Notes under the pieces: model-generated
Told to the model about the DNA's origin: nothing
Seen by the model: the letters and a program-made list of their open reading frames with translations, nothing else
The model's database searches: none
Translations under genes and position numbers: made by a program
In this document: piece by piece, positions 8,796 through 39,504 of the stretch
How the letters are laid out: every line of letters begins with the position of its first letter
Position numbering within the stretch: position 1 is the first letter of the stretch
Sequence record: BK061479.1
Length of the DNA: 39,504 bases
Origin: Pseudomonas phage vB_PaeS-D14F
Strand: one strand, 5' to 3'

Positions 8796-11700
8796 CTAGA
8801 TAATCTGCTTGACGGCCTGGCGGTTCTTGTTCAGCCAGACCAGGAAGTGTTCGCCGCCTTTGCCGGCCCACATGTCGGCCGCCATCTGATCCGTGTCTTG
8901 AACGGCGTGCAGGTAGATCGAGTTGGCGACCGAGGTACTGAAGTTCTTGGAGGGCTCCTGCAGGCGCGAAGCAGAAAGGCCCGGAGCGGGCATGGCCGGA
9001 GCAGGAGTCCCCATCAGGCCGCCCGTAGCGTGGCGGACTGGGTTCGCCCAGGCGCCCAGGGCAGCCATGCCATACCGGTTGAACTGCTCCAGAAACGCGA
9101 GTGCGCCGGGCTGCCGTACCACGGCGGCACGGGTCATGAACTCGTCGTTGGAGGCCAGGATCGGGATGCTGTCGCTGGTGCCGGTGCCTGGTCCTTGGAT
9201 ACGCCCGCCATCGGCGAAGCCACCTCCGAAATACGCACTGGCGGCACTCATGCCCAGTTGCAACCAGCCACCACCACCGCCAGTGCCGCCAGCAGCACCG
9301 CCACCGAATAGGCTGCTGAACAGGTTGCCGAACAAACTGGCACCCTGACCAAACACTCCAGCCAGCGCGCTCGCCAGAGTGCCACCGCCCGACGTGGTTG
9401 CTTCGCTGATCGCGCTGCCCATTGCGGCTGCGCCTTCGGTCGACGCGGCAGCAATAGCAGCCGCTGGACCGGCTTGTCCGGCTGCAGAGGCTGCGCCGCC
9501 CAGCACCTGGCCACCGTTCGCTGCCGCTAGCGATGCGGCTGCAGCCTGAATCGCCGCGGCGCCGGTCACGAGAGTGCCTCCCGCGGTTGCCAGGGCGCCG
9601 GCCGATGCCGAGACCGCCGAGGCACCTACGGCCAGGTCTTTGCTGCCAGCGTCTTTGGTCTCGCCGAGTCCGAAGCTACTGAGCAACGATGCTCCGAGCT
9701 GCCTGGTCGCCATACGAGCGGAGTCGGCCGCGAGCGTACGGAGAAAGTCATCCAGGCTGGCCTTACCCGTTGTTACGGCGGAAACGACGCTGTTCTCCAG
9801 GCCAGACATCGCGTTGCTGAACAGGTCGTAGGTCTGGCCCGCGACGTTCCTGGCCGAGTCGAGATAGTCGGCGAACGCCGAGCGGGCACCGTTGGTCCAG
9901 TCTGCCTGCGCGATCTGCAAGGCCGCGTAGTTGCGTTGGAGCTGCTCGGTCATCGCCGCGTGGTTCGCCTGCAGCTTCTGCAGCTTGTCGTTGTACTCGT
10001 CGAGGCTCATGCCACGCGAGCCGTCGCCGTACTGGCTCGCCAGGTCCAGGCGCTGCTGTGCGAATCGGTCGTCAAGGCTGCCACGCTGATCGAACAAGCG
10101 GCGCTGTTGCGCGCCCATGCCCACGGCAGCGGCGGCACGTTGACCCTGGAGGGCCAGCGCATCCTGTTGTTGCTGGAGCGCATCGCTGTAGGCCTTGACT
10201 GCCTGGGCCTGTTTCTTCAGGCGCCCCTGTTCGTTGAGCTGGAGGACTTCCAGGTCGGCGTCTGCCTTCTTCTGCGCCTTGACCATGTTGTTCCTGGCCT
10301 CGGCGATCTTCTGGTCCAGGCTGATGCGCTGGGCCGCCGTGGTGGAACTTTTGTCGCGCAGCGCCTCCAGCGCCTGGATTTCCCCCTCATAGGCTGCGGT
10401 GACCTGGTCCTTGTTCTGGCTGATCAGTTCGCCGCGCTGCGCGACATAGTCCGCATAGCTCAGCAGGCCGGCGCGCTGCTGCGCCTGGAGCTTCTGCTCG
10501 GCGTTCCTGTAGTCGGCCTGCAACTGGTCCAGCTGGTTCTTCGCTTCGGTGACGGTGGACTGATCGAGTGGAGTACTCGGCCCCTTCGGAGTCTTCGGGT
10601 CTTTGTACTTCTGATCAATGGCCTTGCGAGCAGCGGCGATGTTTTCCGGCCGCAGGCGCTCGTCGTTCGGGTTCGTGGCTTGAATCGCGGCGATGCTGCG
10701 ATCCAATTCCCGGTTCAACTTGTCCCGTTTCTCTTTATTGGTGCGAACAGTCTCCAGCAGCCGGTCCATACTCTGCTGACCGCGCGTGGCTTCACTATCC
10801 AAATAAGCCTTGAGCCGCGCCGCCTGGGCTTTCTCGCCTTCATCTTGAATTTCCTGAAGGGCATCGGTGAATTGCTTCCCGCGTTCCTCGTCCGACATTG
10901 AGTTGCGCTGGAAAGCCTTGCGCACCTCGTTGAGCCAGCCGAGCGGCCCGAAAACTGCGGCACTGGCAGCTGCCTGGCCTGGCTTGAACGCCGGACCGCT
11001 CAGTTGCTCCAGACGCTCTTCAGGCGTTTCCGTGCGGCCCACGCCGAGCATCTCGTCCCATGCACCTTTTGCGATGTCGCCAACAGTCCTCCACGCGCGC
11101 TCCATCGTGCCCAGGTTCTCGACGATCTGATTCGCCCGCTCGTCCATAGCCTGGCTATAGGCGTCCATGGCGAACTGGGCAGCACCCAGCGTGTCCCCCT
11201 GCCTCTCCAGGGCAGTGATCTGCTCGTACACCGAGGCCGTCAGGTAGTGATAGCGGTCATTGAGCTGCTGCGACGCCTTGACCGGATCATCGGCCAGCTT
11301 GGAGAACTCGGCCACGGTTTCAGAAACGGCCTTACCAGTCGCCTCCTGCATAGCAATCGCAGTGGTTCCGACCTGTTCGATCTGCTCGACCGTGAACTTA
11401 CCTGTGGAAGTGATCTCCGACAGCGCGGCCACAGCTTCGTACCGTGTACCGTTCACTTTGGCAAGCGATGCGGCCATCGCTGCCAGCTGCCCAGCGCTGG
11501 TGCCGGCATAGTTGCCGGTCAGGATGATTGATTCGTTGAGTTCGCTGGCTTCGTCGCTGCCTTTCTTGTAGGCATAGGCCAATGCGACAGCCGCCGCTGC
11601 GGCCGCCGCTGCAACGATGGCAAATGCGCCGCCAGCACTCCCCAGCCCTGAAAGCGCTCCCTTGGCGTTTTCCGCCGCTTCAGCCGTGGTGTTTGCCGTA

Positions 11701-12638
11701 TCGGCCATGTCGGTGAAGCCGTCGCTGACATTGTCGGCCCCATCGGCAACCGCCGATTGCTCCTTTGCAACGGCCGCAAGGCCTTCGCCCACGGCAAGAA
11801 TGCCGCCAGCATTTACGGAACTGGTCAGGCCGAAGAACGACTTGATCTTTTCACCGAGCGCCCTGAAGGTTTCCCCGACGCCACCGAAACTATCGGTGAT
11901 CTGGCCGCCCTGCTGGATAGCGACCATCCAGACCGGCATGCCGCTGGCCAGACTGGTAACAACGTCAGTGATCTGTGCCGGCAACTGCCGCATCGCCTGC
12001 TTGTACTGCCCCGCGGACAGTCCGGCGACTTTCATCGCATCAGACGTTCCGAGCAGCCGTTCACGTTGTTCCTGGAGCCGCGCGCTGTAGGTCGCAAAGC
12101 CCTCGGGATCAATCAGTTGGGAGTTCCTGGCCTGCCCCAGGCGTTTTTCCAGGTTGTCGAGCTTCTCCAGCTCACGCGTAACCGGATCGATCGCTCCCAG
12201 CAACTTGGCCAGCTCCGACTGCTGCTTGTCGAACTCGGCCGAGGCCTTGGCGGCGGCTTCGGCGGCTCGCTGCTCGGTCGCGATCTGCTGCTGCCTGGCA
12301 CGCTCGGCGTTGTGGTAGGCGTTCATCGACGCCGATTGGGCGCGTGCGCTCTCCTGCCAACCGGCAGTTGCGGCGCGGGTTGAGGTGTTGAGCTTGTCGG
12401 AACTGTTGGCCAGGGCGTCGAACGCGGCCTGCTGCTGAAGGCTGGCCGCCACCATGGCCTTGAGCCGTGCCGCCTGTTGATCGGCACTCTCGCCGATCGC
12501 ACTCAGCTGACTGCTGGTGGCGGTGGCACTGGTACCGATCTGCTCGACCTGGCTGTTGATGTTATCCAGGGCCTGGGCGCCCTGATTCCCGTCAGCGCGG
12601 ATGCGTAGTGCCAGATCAAGTTCTTTGCCCGTTGCCAT
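8796..12638 (-). CDS. tail tape measure protein (1280 aa)
   Basis: Very long Ala/Gln-rich coiled-coil ORF with a Gly-rich C-terminal region. Sits between the chaperone and distal tail genes. Confidence 0.9.
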   Translation of the reverse strand: MATGKELDLALRIRADGNQGAQALDNINSQVEQIGTSATATSSQLSAIGESADQQAARLKAMVAASLQQQAAFDALANSSDKLNTSTRAATAGWQESARAQSASMNAYHNAERARQQQIATEQRAAEAAAKASAEFDKQQSELAKLLGAIDPVTRELEKLDNLEKRLGQARNSQLIDPEGFATYSARLQEQRERLLGTSDAMKVAGLSAGQYKQAMRQLPAQITDVVTSLASGMPVWMVAIQQGGQITDSFGGVGETFRALGEKIKSFFGLTSSVNAGGILAVGEGLAAVAKEQSAVADGADNVSDGFTDMADTANTTAEAAENAKGALSGLGSAGGAFAIVAAAAAAAAVALAYAYKKGSDEASELNESIILTGNYAGTSAGQLAAMAASLAKVNGTRYEAVAALSEITSTGKFTVEQIEQVGTTAIAMQEATGKAVSETVAEFSKLADDPVKASQQLNDRYHYLTASVYEQITALERQGDTLGAAQFAMDAYSQAMDERANQIVENLGTMERAWRTVGDIAKGAWDEMLGVGRTETPEERLEQLSGPAFKPGQAAASAAVFGPLGWLNEVRKAFQRNSMSDEERGKQFTDALQEIQDEGEKAQAARLKAYLDSEATRGQQSMDRLLETVRTNKEKRDKLNRELDRSIAAIQATNPNDERLRPENIAAARKAIDQKYKDPKTPKGPSTPLDQSTVTEAKNQLDQLQADYRNAEQKLQAQQRAGLLSYADYVAQRGELISQNKDQVTAAYEGEIQALEALRDKSSTTAAQRISLDQKIAEARNNMVKAQKKADADLEVLQLNEQGRLKKQAQAVKAYSDALQQQQDALALQGQRAAAAVGMGAQQRRLFDQRGSLDDRFAQQRLDLASQYGDGSRGMSLDEYNDKLQKLQANHAAMTEQLQRNYAALQIAQADWTNGARSAFADYLDSARNVAGQTYDLFSNAMSGLENSVVSAVTTGKASLDDFLRTLAADSARMATRQLGASLLSSFGLGETKDAGSKDLAVGASAVSASAGALATAGGTLVTGAAAIQAAAASLAAANGGQVLGGAASAAGQAGPAAAIAAASTEGAAAMGSAISEATTSGGGTLASALAGVFGQGASLFGNLFSSLFGGGAAGGTGGGGGWLQLGMSAASAYFGGGFADGGRIQGPGTGTSDSIPILASNDEFMTRAAVVRQPGALAFLEQFNRYGMAALGAWANPVRHATGGLMGTPAPAMPAPGLSASRLQEPSKNFSTSVANSIYLHAVQDTDQMAADMWAGKGGEHFLVWLNKNRQAVKQII

Positions 12639-12724
12639 GTCGAGTCACGTCAGAAAGGAGTGGCTCGCATGGTTACGCGCGCGCGCGAACGGGTCTTTGT
12701 GGCAAGCAAAAAAAACGCCCCGAA

Positions 12725-26510: not shown

Positions 26511-26807
26511 TCAGAGCCCCAGCGTCAGGCCGAGGATGCAGGCCAGCACGATCAGCCCGCGGCGCAGCCAGGCACCCACGACCACCAGGTTGGCCGAGCA
26601 TTCGTGCGGGCGGGCCACGTACGGAAACAGGCTGCGGTCGATCCAGTAGCCGGCCACTGCGCCCAGCGTCACCAGGACCAGCTTATAGGCGACGACCTGG
26701 AGCTGCTCCGGGCGAATGGCGGCGAGGATGATCAGCAGGACGAGGGTGACCAGCGTCCAGCTGGTCATACGCGGCGCGCGGCGGCGCCGGGGTTGCGGCG
26801 ATGACAT
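26511..26807 (-). CDS. holin-like membrane protein (98 aa; alternative Met at 26768)
   Basis: Three predicted TM segments. First gene of the late arm. Confidence 0.55.
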   Translation of the reverse strand: MSSPQPRRRRAPRMTSWTLVTLVLLIILAAIRPEQLQVVAYKLVLVTLGAVAGYWIDRSLFPYVARPHECSANLVVVGAWLRRGLIVLACILGLTLGL

Positions 26808-26980
26808 GACGATGCTCCCGATGGGGTGGCCATCCCTGGCCAGCTGATGGGCATCCTGCTCCTGCAGGACGCCCGGACATCATCGTCACGCGCGCGCGAA
26901 GGCTCTTTTTGGGTACCGAACAATCAATCGATAGGGCGACGGATCAGCATTGGATCTCCATCACCGAGGAGACCACTACC

Positions 26981-27862
26981 ATGTCCACGCACGAAGACCT
27001 GCTCCTGCAACTCATCCAGCGTGATCCCGGCAAGATCAGGAGCATCCTGGGGCTGTCTGCTCCAAAGCCAGACCTGTCCTGGTACAAAGGGGCAGACGTC
27101 TGGATTGAAGCTGGACACCGTAGCGACAGGGGCGCGGAACTACGCATAGCCTTCGGGGAACCTCTCCCAAGCGGCTATGCCGATTTCTGGATACCGTTCA
27201 GCGGACCGGATGGCAGCGCACTGGGCTGGCTGCGCTTCAGCTACATCACCACGGTACGGGAGAAGTCTCTGTTCACCGCCTCTGAATGGCGCTCCGCAGG
27301 CGAACCTGCGCCGGCCGAAGAGAGCCGCCTGGATCTGCCGATAGATTCGCTGCCTGGAGGATTCGTACCCGAGTCCAACGAAGGCGCGAATGACGAAATC
27401 AAACAGCAGATGCTTGCGCAAAGGCACGGCTGTTCGTCTCATCACCTGGAACGGTGGCTACAGGCCTTCGAGCGTCGAATAAAGGAACAGACTGCTCGGC
27501 TACTGGAACCTCTTATTGATCCTGCGGACTTTTGGGATCTGGTCTCGAAACCACGTTGTCCGGAACGTCCCCCTGCGCAGGCGCTGGAGGCCGAAGAGCC
27601 GGCCAAACCGGGGCCCCTGAAACACATCGCGTTTTCAGGGCCACAGCGTGTCTTGCTGGATCAGTTGGCGCAGTACTGGCTCAGGATCGCCGCAGTGTCG
27701 AAGCGCGAGGCTGAGGCGAACCCCAACCCGGACCGGAAGCGCGGGCTGGAGCTGAGGTACATGGCGCACTACAACTGCGCCGCAGAATTACAGAATCTGC
27801 TCAAGACCGGGGAGCTTCCGGGCCATCTCGGTTTTCAGGTACTCGCGCAACAGCCCGAATGA
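26981..27862 (+). CDS. hypothetical protein (293 aa), cargo gene in the divergent immunity region
   Basis: Track ORF 26909..27862. GAGGAG SD 9 nt before the ATG at 26981. GC3 ~65-70%. No recognisable motif. Confidence 0.6.
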   Translation: MSTHEDLLLQLIQRDPGKIRSILGLSAPKPDLSWYKGADVWIEAGHRSDRGAELRIAFGEPLPSGYADFWIPFSGPDGSALGWLRFSYITTVREKSLFTASEWRSAGEPAPAEESRLDLPIDSLPGGFVPESNEGANDEIKQQMLAQRHGCSSHHLERWLQAFERRIKEQTARLLEPLIDPADFWDLVSKPRCPERPPAQALEAEEPAKPGPLKHIAFSGPQRVLLDQLAQYWLRIAAVSKREAEANPNPDRKRGLELRYMAHYNCAAELQNLLKTGELPGHLGFQVLAQQPE

Positions 27863-27867
27863 CCAAG

Positions 27868-27906
27868 AGGCCAAGGGCTTCAGAATGACGTCCTTGGCCT
27901 TCTTCC
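27868..27906. terminator. hairpin between convergent genes (9-bp stem AGGCCAAGG/CCTTGGCCT, 15-nt loop, then TCTTCC)
   Basis: Inverted repeat 27868-27876 / 27892-27900 located 6 nt after the stop of the 293-aa ORF. Confidence 0.35.
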
Positions 27907-27917
27907 ACAGCGTGTCC

Positions 27918-28121
27918 TCACTTACCCAGCATACCCAAGAGCTGACGGTAGACTCCCTCGATAAGGTCGGGCAAGGGTGGAGTGCTCTCTCTTTCCTCGA
28001 TGCCGAACCAGTACTGTTCTCGGGAGTCCAGCATCTGGTTTTGGCTAGTGACATAAGTCGTCACCAACTGCACAGCCAACTTCATGATTTCTCGCCTGGT
28101 TTCTTCACTGAAATCATTCAT
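27918..28121 (-). CDS. small helical protein (67 aa) co-transcribed downstream of the repressor
   Basis: Track ORF 27918..28229. The ATG at 28121 has a GGAG SD 8 nt upstream and lies 20 nt after the repressor stop. Confidence 0.45.
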   Translation of the reverse strand: MNDFSEETRREIMKLAVQLVTTYVTSQNQMLDSREQYWFGIEERESTPPLPDLIEGVYRQLLGMLGK

Positions 28122-28140
28122 CGCAGCATCTCCGTAATCA

Positions 28141-28650
28141 TCATTCGCCGCCTTGGCGTTTCTCTTTCGCACGGTCCTTGTGCGCCAGAGCACTCGCTGT
28201 GCTCTCCATGGCTCTCCGTCCTTCTTCATCTGATCCCCGATAGTTCTCGATCAGGGCCTTTTCTCGCTGATTGAGCCTGTACTCGCCAAGCGGTTCAGCG
28301 ACGACTGAGCGTGTGACTGGATTGATTTTTTCGGTCATATGTTGCGATGGCGCAACATATGCCTGATCAGTAGCGAGCGGCGCTCGCTGACCTGTCAATA
28401 CATAAAGAACATCAACTCCGGCCGCCGCAATGGCGGCCAGGTATGCGGCATCTGGATGCCGCTCATCCTTCTCGTAGTTGATCTGCGCGCGCTTTTGCAC
28501 CCCGCCGACCTCAGCAAAAGAGGACTGGTTCATTCCTTTCCTCTCGCGCTCTTCCCTTAATCGTTCGCCGATGGTGCTCAAATGATCACCTTTCGCTTGC
28601 AATGTGCACGAATGAACACCATAATCAATCCAACAAAACACAAACATCAT
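28141..28650 (-). CDS. phage repressor c, XRE-family HTH (track start ATG 28650; alternative TTG start at 28581)
   Basis: HTH_3 motif IGERLREERERKGMNQSSFAEVGGVQKRAQINYEKDERHP. No S24 peptidase motif. Faces Ner-like gene. Confidence 0.8.
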   Translation of the reverse strand: MMFVFCWIDYGVHSCTLQAKGDHLSTIGERLREERERKGMNQSSFAEVGGVQKRAQINYEKDERHPDAAYLAAIAAAGVDVLYVLTGQRAPLATDQAYVAPSQHMTEKINPVTRSVVAEPLGEYRLNQREKALIENYRGSDEEGRRAMESTASALAHKDRAKEKRQGGE

Positions 28651-28677: not shown

Positions 28678-28887
28678 ATGGCTACCCAGAAGGCACTGAC
28701 CCCTGACCAGGTCAAACAGCGTTTCCGCCAGCGCGGAATCACCATTACCCAGTGGGCCGCAGAGCACGGTTACAAGCGCAACGCTGTGTACCGCGTGCTC
28801 AACGGCTTCGACAAAGCCAACTACGGCCAGGCCCACGACATCGCCGTAGCCCTCGGCCTCAAGGCCTGCGACCCCGTCGCCGCCTAA
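28678..28887 (+). CDS. Ner/Cro-like small DNA-binding protein (69 aa)
   Basis: Track ORF 28582..28887. AGGAG SD 8 nt before the ATG. Size and position opposite the repressor. Confidence 0.6.
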   Translation: MATQKALTPDQVKQRFRQRGITITQWAAEHGYKRNAVYRVLNGFDKANYGQAHDIAVALGLKACDPVAA

Positions 28888-28932: not shown

Positions 28933-29253
28933 TCAATCGTTTTCAGGCTTCTGGCCAGCGCCTGGCTGCTTGGGCTCGCCAGCAAGGCTTGGTGCCGGCA
29001 TCAGTTGAAACCTTGAACGCCGCAGCAGCACCTCGGGTTCATCAACCAGCATCCCAAGCATTCGCTGAAACAGCACGTCCTGAAGCGAGTCCGGTTCTAT
29101 CTGCTGGTTGTGCCAGTCCGCAAGTAGACGGGCGTACTCCGCTGTATCCAACTGCCCCGTCTTGCCCAGTGCCAGCACCAACGCCTGAAGCAGTTGCATC
29201 AGTCCCTCGATGCCTTCCAGAGCCCAGTCCCGGCCCGTTTCCTGTTCTTCCAT
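28933..29253 (-). CDS. hypothetical protein (106 aa) antisense within the early arm
   Basis: Strong SD TAGGAGGA 4 nt before the ATG. GC3 ~70%. The overlapping plus-frame ORF has a low-GC3 Pro/Ala-rich stretch, suggesting that frame is an artefact. Confidence 0.35.
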   Translation of the reverse strand: MEEQETGRDWALEGIEGLMQLLQALVLALGKTGQLDTAEYARLLADWHNQQIEPDSLQDVLFQRMLGMLVDEPEVLLRRSRFQLMPAPSLAGEPKQPGAGQKPEND

Positions 29254-37933: not shown

Positions 37934-38125
37934 ATGTCGCAAGCCAATCCGTTCATCCGTCCTGACAAGGACTACGGTGCAGTGAGTACTGATGATCGCC
38001 TGCGCGCTCTGGACAGCTTCAATCTAGAGCAATGCCGTGCTGCGCTCTCGGTACCCGGTCTGCAGAAGACCGTCGAGAAGAAGCTGCACAGCCGCATTCG
38101 ACAGCTCAACAAGGAGGCCAGGTGA
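37934..38125 (+). CDS. small hypothetical protein (63 aa)
   Basis: CAGGGGGTGTGAGATG junction. Track ORF 37829..38125. Confidence 0.45.
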   Translation: MSQANPFIRPDKDYGAVSTDDRLRALDSFNLEQCRAALSVPGLQKTVEKKLHSRIRQLNKEAR

Positions 38126-38592
38126 TGGAGCGCTACCACTCAACGGCCGGCGATCCACCTCGGCGTGATGCTGACGTAAAGCGGCAGGAGGCCCAGGAGC
38201 TGGACGAACTGGTTCAGCAGTTTCTGGCCGGCGGCGGGCAGATCGAGAAAGTCGGGTACAAGATGCGCGAGCTGCCGGACACTTTCGTCATCAATCCCAT
38301 GAAGACGCCGGTATACAACGGAGCCCTGGCCGAGAATTCGTCGCTCAAAGCGAAGCCTGCCGCGCCACGTACGCAATCCAAGACCGAGCCCCAACGCTCA
38401 CCAGCGCCCGTGCCGGCTTTGCAGCCGGCTCCTGGCGTAAACCCGAAGGTCTGGTTGAGCCGGATGATCGCCGCCCAGGCGCTGCTGGCCGCGCAGACGG
38501 CCAGGCTCGCTCGCGAACTGGGCGTCAGCGATGCTGAGCTGCGCCGGCTGGGTCGTCGGCATGGCATGGAGGTGTTCCATGGCACTCGCTAG
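38125..38592 (+). CDS. hypothetical early protein (155 aa)
   Basis: AAGGAGG SD. TGATG overlap. Track ORF 38032..38592. Confidence 0.5.
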   Translation: MERYHSTAGDPPRRDADVKRQEAQELDELVQQFLAGGGQIEKVGYKMRELPDTFVINPMKTPVYNGALAENSSLKAKPAAPRTQSKTEPQRSPAPVPALQPAPGVNPKVWLSRMIAAQALLAAQTARLARELGVSDAELRRLGRRHGMEVFHGTR

Positions 38593-39142
38593 GGGGCTGC
38601 TCAGCAAGATCCACATCGCTCGTCAGCAGCTCGGCCTGCAGGACGATGTCTATCGGCAGAAGCTGCAGGTGATGTTCGGCAAGGGATCGGCGCGGGATCT
38701 CAACCTGCGCCAGGCCGAGCAGTTGCTGACGGAGTTCAAGCGCCTGGGCTGGCAACCACAGCCCAGCAAGCGAGCAGCCGGCAAGCCGCATAACTTCAGT
38801 CAGCTGCCCGCCGAGGTCCAGGTCATCGAGGCGCAGTTGGCCGAGATGAGGCTGCCCTGGAGTTACGCCGACAAGATCGCCAAGCAGATGTTCGGCGTGG
38901 CCAAGGTCGCCTGGCTGAAGAAGCCAGATCAGCTCACGGCAATCCTGGCAGCGCTGCACGTCGAGCAGGAGAAACGGTACCTCCTCGCTGAAGTGGATCG
39001 GCTCTGCCAGGGCCTGGGCATTGAGCATCCAGAACAGGCAGCCGGCTTGGAACAGTTGCCGAAAGGATGGCGGCGGCAGCGTCCAATCCTCAAGGCCCTG
39101 GTGGAAACGCTCCAAGCGGCCGCAGATAGCAAGCGGAGGTAA
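38579..39142 (+). CDS. GemA-like (Mu gp16, DUF1018) protein (187 aa)
   Basis: Track ORF 38531..39142. GGAGG SD 6 nt before the ATG at 38579. Position immediately before mor. Confidence 0.6.
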   Translation: MALARGLLSKIHIARQQLGLQDDVYRQKLQVMFGKGSARDLNLRQAEQLLTEFKRLGWQPQPSKRAAGKPHNFSQLPAEVQVIEAQLAEMRLPWSYADKIAKQMFGVAKVAWLKKPDQLTAILAALHVEQEKRYLLAEVDRLCQGLGIEHPEQAAGLEQLPKGWRRQRPILKALVETLQAAADSKRR

Positions 39143-39144
39143 TA

Positions 39145-39504
39145 ATGAAGGAGATCCGTTCGCAGCAGATCCGCCGCCGGAACAACATGCTCAGCGAGCT
39201 GGCCGAACTGATCGTCGAAGCGTTCGTGCGCAACGGGATTCCTCGGGAGAAGGCGGTGCCCGAGTCGGAGGAGGTGGCGTTCCAGCTGCATCGGCGCTGG
39301 GCCGGTTTGACATTTGTTTTCCCGGTCAAGGATGACCTGGCCCGCAAGCGTCTGGAGTTGCACATCCTGCAGCGCTACGATGGATCGAACGCCGACAAGC
39401 TGGTCCAGGAGTTCGGAGTTTCAGAAGGGCTGATCTACGAAATCGTCAGGAAGCACCGCAGGCAGCGAAAGGATCAGATGACGCTTTTTGACCCGGCCGA
39501 ATGA
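39145..39504 (+). CDS. mor: Mor-family middle-operon transcriptional activator (119 aa)
   Basis: Size and sequence character of Mor/C-family proteins. GGAGG SD. Last gene before the window edge. Confidence 0.65.
   Translation: MKEIRSQQIRRRNNMLSELAELIVEAFVRNGIPREKAVPESEEVAFQLHRRWAGLTFVFPVKDDLARKRLELHILQRYDGSNADKLVQEFGVSEGLIYEIVRKHRRQRKDQMTLFDPAE

Follow-up and report, generated by a model that had tools for sequence, protein, structure and literature searches.

Between the holin gene and the repressor gene of Pseudomonas phage vB_PaeS-D14F (sequence record BK061479.1, a stretch of 39,504 nucleotides referred to here in its entirety as the window) lie two open reading frames (ORFs), a plus-strand ORF encoding 293 amino acids (aa), ORF293, and a minus-strand ORF encoding 67 aa, orf67. 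The explanation that best fits our analysis, to which we assign a probability of roughly 0.45, is that these are two independent accessory units, ORF293 encoding a modular protein wired to the late programme and orf67 being a lysogenic gene linked to the repressor. Under this explanation, ORF293 would be activated in the lytic cycle, at the same time as the lysis and late genes, through a site for the Mor-family activator, and would not be expressed in the lysogen; the ORF293 transcript would run head-on into the lysogenic repressor operon, perhaps interfering with the repressor transcript. In turn, orf67 would be translated from the lysogenic repressor transcript and inherited with one repressor C-terminal module, whichever DNA-binding half accompanies it, and its product would either work with or through the repressor C-terminal domain or be a small lysogen-expressed accessory factor.

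Nearly the complete genome of a B3-like (Beetrevirus) transposable phage of Pseudomonas aeruginosa is contained in the window, and the closest deposited relative is PM105 (~97% identical across the region). The late genes occupy the minus strand and run leftward from the holin (26511..26807). The early genes begin with a ner-like gene (28678..28887), point rightward and end with GemA (38531..39142) and a Mor-family activator (39145..39501). ORF293 and orf67 are situated between the two arms, adjoining the minus-strand repressor (28141..28533), which has a helix-turn-helix (HTH) domain of the HTH_3 family. The loci compared with the window, numbered below with the prefix L, were taken from deposited phages, IMG/VR, a metagenome-assembled genome, metagenomes and Logan contigs; the features discussed are collected in Table 1.

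Two coding genes outside recognized protein families

Both ORFs are genuine coding genes. The original prediction had placed them correctly and had rightly credited each with a Shine-Dalgarno sequence, GAGGAG at 26966-26971, 9 nt ahead of the ATG, for ORF293 and GGAG (plus-strand ctcc, 28130-28133), 8 nt ahead of the ATG, for orf67, which starts 19 nt past the repressor stop codon (28141-28143). Their counterparts are annotated as hypothetical proteins in PM105 and Ps60 (gp22 and gp21), as are those in Young and U11. The ORF293 homologues occupying the corresponding places in PM105, JBD67 and Ps60 are 83-94% identical in the N-domain and 74-99% in the C-domain, and the orf67 homologues of PM105 and Ps60 are 97-100% identical. 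The window version of ORF293 combines an intact N-domain with a 'Young-type' middle cassette and a C-domain, and no full-length match above 75% identity was present among 5.8 billion clustered proteins.

The proteins proved as unrecognizable as had been reported, by sequence and by fold. Neither matched Pfam, NCBIfam, PADLOC or the sequences of the PDB, the last searched with the single proteins and with a profile, and searches of a fold library with the predicted structures of the ORF293 domains returned no match. Contrary to the suggestion that a defence system is encoded here, neither protein matched a known defence family (0 matches at E<=1, PADLOC-DB v2). The sole profile matches of both were PHROG families of unknown function: ORF293 matched PHROG 35734 and 21394 (E=2.4e-170 and 5.1e-94, respectively), both of which cover the N-domain and the first of which covers the C-domain, and orf67 matched PHROG 33280 over residues 1-67 of 67 (E=1.8e-46). 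Remote proteins consisting of an N- or a C-domain alone match the corresponding parts of the PHROG 35734/21394 profiles. An Rfam search gave nothing beyond a sub-threshold chance match, and a literature search found no published characterization of either protein. The two are thus phage accessory genes of unknown function, previously annotated as hypotheticals, into which the comparisons below give some new descriptive insight.

The low G+C content (GC) that had been ascribed to the whole interval applies to part of it. Relative to a mean of 63.2% (standard deviation (SD) 2.8%, 500-nt windows), values below 58% occur only in windows starting at 27701-28601 (53-58%), a trough spanning 27701 to ~29100 that covers orf67 (50.5%) and the repressor (56%), whereas ORF293, at 60.3%, is only ~1 SD below the mean. 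The GC of third codon positions is 0.67 in ORF293 as compared with 0.81-0.90 in the holin, endolysin and ner genes.

ORF293 and orf67 are separate units

ORF293 and orf67 are two separate units, located on opposite strands and belonging to different transcription units. At least 17 loci have a gene of the ORF293 family but no orf67, and in Young, orf67 stands beside a family gene devoid of the N-domain. This independent distribution indicates that the two do not constitute a two-gene system, and a coupled system is thus not supported; what orf67 tracks is one C-terminal module of the repressor. Homology between orf67 and the ORF293 C-domain was also considered and rejected (hhalign probability 0.2%).

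The ORF293 family holds a fixed place beside the holin gene

In all loci with both a holin and an N-domain (24 of 24), the ORF293-family gene adjoins the holin gene and is divergent from it. The spacing between the two is 139-173 bp, and the family gene is the first after the holin in every locus recovered. This rule of position holds for forms with the N-domain only, the C-domain only or both, distant Mu-like phages included, even where holin identity falls to 47-69%. The same place is held by the C-only genes of L032 and L033 (holin called by Pfam). Downstream of the family gene are variable minus-strand genes that trail the repressor. Context scans for the remote stand-alone domains recovered nothing from viral contigs or the first metagenome scan, and the sequences in alignments A4 and A5 had diverged too far to allow pattern scans.

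As had been expected, the slot between holin and repressor is variable among B3-like phages, and the region beside the repressor is an already recognized plasticity zone of beetreviruses. The ORF293-family gene is absent from B3, JD18, SS2019XII and BcepMu; same-strand genes fill the slot in B3 and BcepMu, and one unrelated gene fills it in JD18. SS2019XII retains the first ~25 codons of ORF293, and JD18 retains its Shine-Dalgarno sequence, ATG and two further codons; these remnants show that the group inherited the gene from its ancestor and that cassette replacement later removed it. (The SS2019XII remnant, with an upstream extension, makes up gp48, L006 2695-2865, which is annotated as a 'lipoprotein'.) Partial forms also occur: Young has no N-domain, U11 has no C-domain, JBD25 has the N-domain only, and the C-domain of JBD67 gp18 is split over two frames (L002 3646-3911) by a frameshift or a sequencing error. 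Judging from these absent and decayed copies in relatives, ORF293 appears to be dispensable for phage growth. Nevertheless, its fixed place beside the holin even in distant Mu-like phages, the ancestral remnants and the low ratios of nonsynonymous to synonymous substitution rates (dN/dS) in the N-domain (0.11-0.21), which indicate purifying selection, run counter to the view of ORF293 as random cargo.

A candidate activator site in the divergent control region

The 173-bp region separating the holin and ORF293 start codons is almost invariant even in phages without ORF293 (B3, JD18 and SS2019XII), and its core motifs are retained in the distant loci L020-L022, L028, L029, L032 and L034. Across distant loci, the core consists of CGCGCGCGCG-AAGG-(G/C)TCTTTT followed by an inverted repeat made of a T-run and an A-run, represented in the window by the dyad TTTTTGGGT/ACCGAACAA at 26906-26923. 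The inner bases of the dyad covary (TTTTCGGC/GCCGAAAA, TTTTTGCC/GGCAAAAA and TTTTTGCG/CGCAAAAA), and its centre is located 64-67 nt from the plus-strand ATG in 7 of 11 loci and 83-107 nt from the holin ATG. The signature CGCGCGCGCG-AA(C/G)GG(G/C)TCTTT occurs exactly twice in the window (26889-26909 and 12678-12698) as opposed to 0.05 expected copies, and both copies are just upstream of minus-strand late operons, that of the holin and that of a tape-measure-like ORF (8796..12638). The recurrence and conservation of these motifs suggest that the control element is a probable site for the Mor-family activator of the phage. On the minus strand, the copy upstream of the tape-measure-like ORF is preceded by a terminator-like ggggcgtttttttt at ~12706-12722.

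The Mor and C proteins of phage Mu act at promoters without a -35 element, where they bind dyads whose centre lies near -43.5. A similar geometry in the window would place a transcription start ~43 nt to the right of the dyad, giving ORF293 a leader of ~23 nt, and would be accompanied by symmetric -10-like hexamers, GATGAT on the holin side and CAGCAT on the ORF293 side. Since ORF293 is opposed to the repressor transcript and is preceded by a late-promoter signature, its co-activation with the lysis and late genes would be at least as likely as lysogenic expression, and we consider it the more likely of the two. Expression in the lysogen, which had been proposed for the whole slot, stays plausible for orf67, by analogy with the beetrevirus Fc02, and is unsupported for ORF293. 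In Fc02 itself, the holin cluster and the third late cluster are transcribed synchronously (PMC9936078).

ORF293 is a modular two-domain protein

The AlphaFold2 (AF2) model of ORF293 contains two confident domains separated by a low-confidence middle, with predicted local distance difference test (pLDDT) scores of 80-92 in the N-domain and below 50 over most of the length of the middle. Alternative, indel-rich cassettes make up this middle in the family alignment (A1); the cassette found in the window is 96% identical in Young and 73% identical, over part of its length, in JBD67. The domains are also found apart, stand-alone N-domain proteins of 85-150 aa being known, and the alignments together with an exhaustive profile search revealed N-only, C-only, N+C and N+other architectures. 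Neither domain has conserved residues that look catalytic, suggesting that ORF293 most likely acts by binding other proteins.

Two other assignments were considered and rejected. A possible HTH at aa 145-164 (HTH_23, E=0.14) is below threshold and sits in the non-conserved middle cassette, and a role for ORF293 as the late activator was discarded because Mor is encoded elsewhere and ORF293 is absent from viable relatives. As a separate observation, some distant N-domain proteins from metagenomes (P0086 and P0090) have an N-terminal extension with a P-loop-like GPTGSGKS motif, which gives weak matches to ABC_tran and Zeta_toxin (E ~0.004-0.01) and matches PHROG 3787 (unknown function).

orf67 follows the C-terminal module of the repressor

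The repressor gene is a mosaic. The HTH halves differ between immunity alleles (~47% aa identity, with a synonymous divergence, dS, of ~0.67), whereas PM105, Young, Ps60, U11 and several prophages share the C-terminal 60 aa at 96-100% identity, and a swapped HTH half joined to a conserved C-terminal 60 aa implies a recombination breakpoint inside the repressor gene. orf67 was present in the window and in 9 of 9 loci carrying the C-terminal module at 96% identity or more, irrespective of the HTH allele, and was missing from all other loci. The same mosaic pattern seen in the window (28141-28533) is shared by the repressor loci L007 and L008.

Only five clusters of orf67 proteins were found, all near-identical, and a divergent allele with 67% aa identity is present in L018, L019 and L026. 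Differences from PM105, Ps60 and U11 amount to 0-3 nt, giving no power for dN/dS, whereas 49 of 204 nt (24%) differ from the divergent L019 allele, with no indels and 67 codons in both; in this comparison the orf67 frame has a lower dN/dS (0.30) than any of the other five frames. No remote relatives of orf67 were found among the other ORFs that trail repressors. The protein is acidic, has no membrane segment and is modelled as two helices (pLDDT 69), too simple for a fold search.

No terminator-like site was found on the minus strand in the interval from the repressor to orf67. A single ~1.9 kb transcript carries both the repressor gene repc and the downstream gene e4 in lysogens of Fc02 (PMC9936078), and by analogy the lysogenic repressor transcript is the most likely source of orf67.

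Two further observations concern this junction. A direct repeat, ATCATTC(A/G)(T/C)CGC, at 28113-28124 and 28140-28151 (spaced 27 nt) spans the orf67 start and the repressor stop, and may be due to chance or be a trace of the orf67-repressor junction. In L019 (5621-8525; IMGVR_UViG_2562617129_000005), the divergent orf67 allele and the 3' end of the repressor C-module are joined in frame to an ORF for an 893-aa tail protein; the fusion replaces the repressor HTH half and the early region and represents either a large prophage rearrangement or deletion or an assembly chimera.

Convergent 3' ends and the relic of a DUF2513 gene

The 3' ends of ORF293-family genes overlap convergently with genes of the repressor operon by 4-131 nt in L011, L019, L028, L031, L032 and L034. 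The genes trailing the repressor often include a DUF2513 gene, which in L011, L028 and L032 shares 63-75 nt with the 3' end of the C-domain gene; the intact copy in L011 (2669..3052, minus strand) encodes 127 aa (PF10711, E=1.2e-18). Comparison with that copy indicates that the DUF2513 gene of the window has been deleted, leaving its 3' end behind as a relic (Table 1).

The hairpin previously described between ORF293 and orf67 falls within this relic. The inverted repeat is real (27868-27882 and 27886-27900, with 15-nt arms that are 87% complementary) and is stable as plus-strand RNA (-25.3 kcal/mol, z = -3.4), while on the minus strand it is no better than shuffled sequences (z = -1.0). Since no U-tract adjoins it on either strand, it is at best a weak terminator.

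Table 1. Coordinates of the features discussed, as positions in the window
Feature	Position	Strand	Details
Second signature copy, same orientation, upstream of tape-measure-like late operon	12678..12698		Found by motif scan
Divergent control region, holin (leftward) / ORF293 (rightward)	26808..26980		173 bp, nearly identical in B3-like phages
Late-promoter signature CGCGCGCGCG-AAGG-CTCTTTT, then dyad; candidate Mor-type activator site	26889..26923		Motif recurrence
ORF293, modular two-domain protein (PM105 gp22 / JBD67 gp18 family; PHROG 35734/21394)	26981..27862	+	293 aa
N-domain, aa 37-130, β-rich	27089..27370	+	Motif WIE.GH..ELRIAF..FWIPFS.P.G.ALGWLRF..EWRS..PAP
Variable middle, aa 131-204, probably a disordered linker of discrete recombining cassettes	27371..27592	+	Low model confidence, alternative cassettes
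C-domain, aa 205-293, helical hairpin	27593..27859	+	Ends in TGELP..LGFQV motif
Relic of the 3' end of a DUF2513 gene (frame ...EDTLWKKAKDVILKPLASWSFGLLREYLKTEMARKLPGLEQIL*), holding the hairpin 27868-27900	27788..27917	-	By comparison with the intact L011 gene
orf67, acidic, two predicted helices (PM105 gp21; PHROG 33280)	27918..28121	-	67 aa
Repressor C-terminal module, last 60 aa	28144..28323	-	At least 96% conserved in every orf67-bearing locus
Repressor N-terminal HTH_3 half, swapped between immunity alleles	28324..28533	-	~47% aa identity between alleles
Mor-family late activator gene, last of the early operon, preceded by GemA	39145..39501	+	PF08765, E=1.7e-16

Alternative explanations

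Several points weigh against two independent units wired in this manner. With regard to ORF293, 4 of 11 loci have a weak dyad or none, no divergent gene is found beside the second copy of the signature, and the dyad could serve the holin promoter only; in addition, a simple scan for sigma-70 consensus promoters gave none for ORF293, and since only 35 sequences stand behind the AF2 model, a known fold may have been missed. With regard to orf67, e4 of Fc02 is a positional equivalent only, homology not being established, so that co-transcription is argued by analogy. Fc02 has a JD18-type repressor (primer matches to L005 and L011), and the genes trailing that type of repressor in JD18 and L011 encode a 155-178-aa signal-peptide protein and a DUF2513 protein rather than orf67. 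Finally, the link between orf67 and the C-terminal module could reflect mere adjacency and recent common descent, as the carriers are all close relatives.

It is possible, though we consider it doubtful, that one or both genes provide a lysogen-expressed benefit to the host, such as superinfection exclusion (Sie), abortive infection or another defence, possibly acting jointly. Exclusion proteins are indeed known from the immunity regions of beetreviruses, the examples in Fc02 and Ps56 being olg1/sie1 and gene 10 (PMC9936078). The slot is variable, the hypervariable, cassette-like middle and repeated domain losses of ORF293 resemble what is seen in arms-race genes, and orf67 is, by the analogy above, very probably transcribed in the lysogen. 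However, the lack of PADLOC matches and the independent distribution of the two genes argue against this view, as does the orientation of ORF293, opposite to the lysogenic transcript and adjoining a late-promoter element. Moreover, only the repressor strand is transcribed here in the Fc02 lysogen, although Fc02 probably does not have ORF293 (PMC9936078), and orf67, unlike classical Sie proteins, has no membrane segment.

Less likely is a role for ORF293 as a regulator of the late or lysis programme, either as a cofactor or antagonist of Mor or as a cytoplasmic lysis-timing factor. Such a role would account for the strict place of both domains by the holin promoter across large evolutionary distances and for the constant spacing of the dyad, and the weak HTH_23-like stretch would fit it; yet that stretch is non-significant and is part of a non-conserved cassette, while the conserved domains are unlike DNA-binding folds. 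The absence of the gene from B3, JD18 and BcepMu and its truncation in several viable phages further indicate that it is not essential for late control. We regard as similarly unlikely a more specific version of the two-unit explanation, in which the ORF293 family would be an unrecognized class of Mor-co-activated lytic effector of Mu-like phages, with two new small folds able to act alone or fused, and orf67 would be a new type of small co- or anti-repressor, a dedicated partner of the repressor C-domain. If true, the target of the ORF293 family would be some function of the host or of a competitor (counter-defence or lytic superinfection control), the cassette-like linker would have been shaped by an arms race, and orf67 would tune immunity or induction in phages whose repressors lack a self-cleaving domain.

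A role of the ORF293 unit mainly at the level of RNA, in which a convergent or antisense transcript would interfere with the repressor operon at its 3' end and the protein would be secondary, seems improbable. The convergent overlaps in many relatives leave no room for terminators, and only the weak hairpin devoid of a U-tract lies between the two units of the window, but strong purifying selection on the N-domain and the conserved motifs in both domains show that the protein matters. Least credible is the idea that orf67 is the toxin or partner of an XRE-antitoxin-like repressor, as in type II toxin-antitoxin addiction, or a spurious ORF: although a small ORF following an XRE-family HTH protein is a common toxin-antitoxin layout, orf67 matches no toxin family (Pfam, NCBIfam and PADLOC) and differs from known toxins in being acidic, 67 aa long and composed of two helices, and its conserved length, lack of indels and dN/dS of 0.30 argue against a spurious ORF.

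Relation to known systems

The lambda rexAB and P22 sieB genes are accessory genes co-transcribed with the immunity repressor. orf67 resembles them in layout, being encoded on the repressor strand immediately after the repressor and not separated from it by a terminator, but has no sequence or structural similarity to them, its product being a small, soluble, acidic and helical protein without membrane segments. Phage 'morons' are autonomous accessory transcription units, and ORF293 is like these in being variably present, somewhat atypical in composition and dispensable. It differs from morons in that its family is positionally fixed, ancient in the group and shares a core regulatory region, and in that no promoter or terminator of its own is obvious, the downstream hairpin being stable on the plus strand and without a U-tract. 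The Mor- and C-dependent promoters of Mu are paralleled by a Mor homologue that ends the early operon and by a signature with a dyad upstream of two late operons; in contrast, the sequence of the motif is specific to this phage group, and bidirectional activation extending to ORF293 is a sequence-based proposal.

The nearest parallel to orf67 is repc-e4 of Fc02 (Ramirez-Sanchez et al. 2023, PMC9936078), from the same genus and with the same regulatory architecture, in which an accessory gene lies directly downstream of the repressor. The downstream gene is co-transcribed with the repressor in Fc02 lysogens and is described as 'not present in all beetreviruses' (PMC9936078). The parallel is limited by the JD18-type repressor of Fc02, a type whose trailing genes are unlike orf67, and the Fc02 study reports no ORF293-like gene in that phage (PMC9936078).

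Clinical P. aeruginosa commonly carries B3-like transposable phages as prophages, and these phages are workhorses in studies of anti-CRISPRs and anti-CBASS; even so, the plasticity region beside their repressors is mostly unannotated. To this region the present analysis adds a two-domain family with a fixed address by a late promoter, a candidate Mor operator for divergent late transcription, and an ORFan, orf67, that follows the C-terminal module of the repressor and not immunity specificity. If the two-unit explanation is correct, a place next to the repressor would not mean lysogenic expression in the case of ORF293, which is relevant to the mining of prophage immunity regions for defence genes. 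Natural variants provide ready-made genetics for the family, namely Young (no N-domain), U11 (no C-domain) and JBD25 (N-domain only).

Other features of the window

Upstream of the repressor and on the repressor strand, antisense to the early genes, is a 106-aa ORF (PM105_18) at 28933-29253 (minus strand), whose position is held in Fc02 by the overlapping exclusion genes olg1/olg2. The primer for olg1 of Fc02 has matches in B3, SS2019XII and L016 and none in the window, implying that this ORF is a different allele or a different gene. Within the early operon, an ORF at 38032-38592 (plus strand) gives a sub-threshold match to the RNA polymerase-binding domain of SutA (PF20661, E=4.4e-4, 20 bits vs a cutoff of 29.3).

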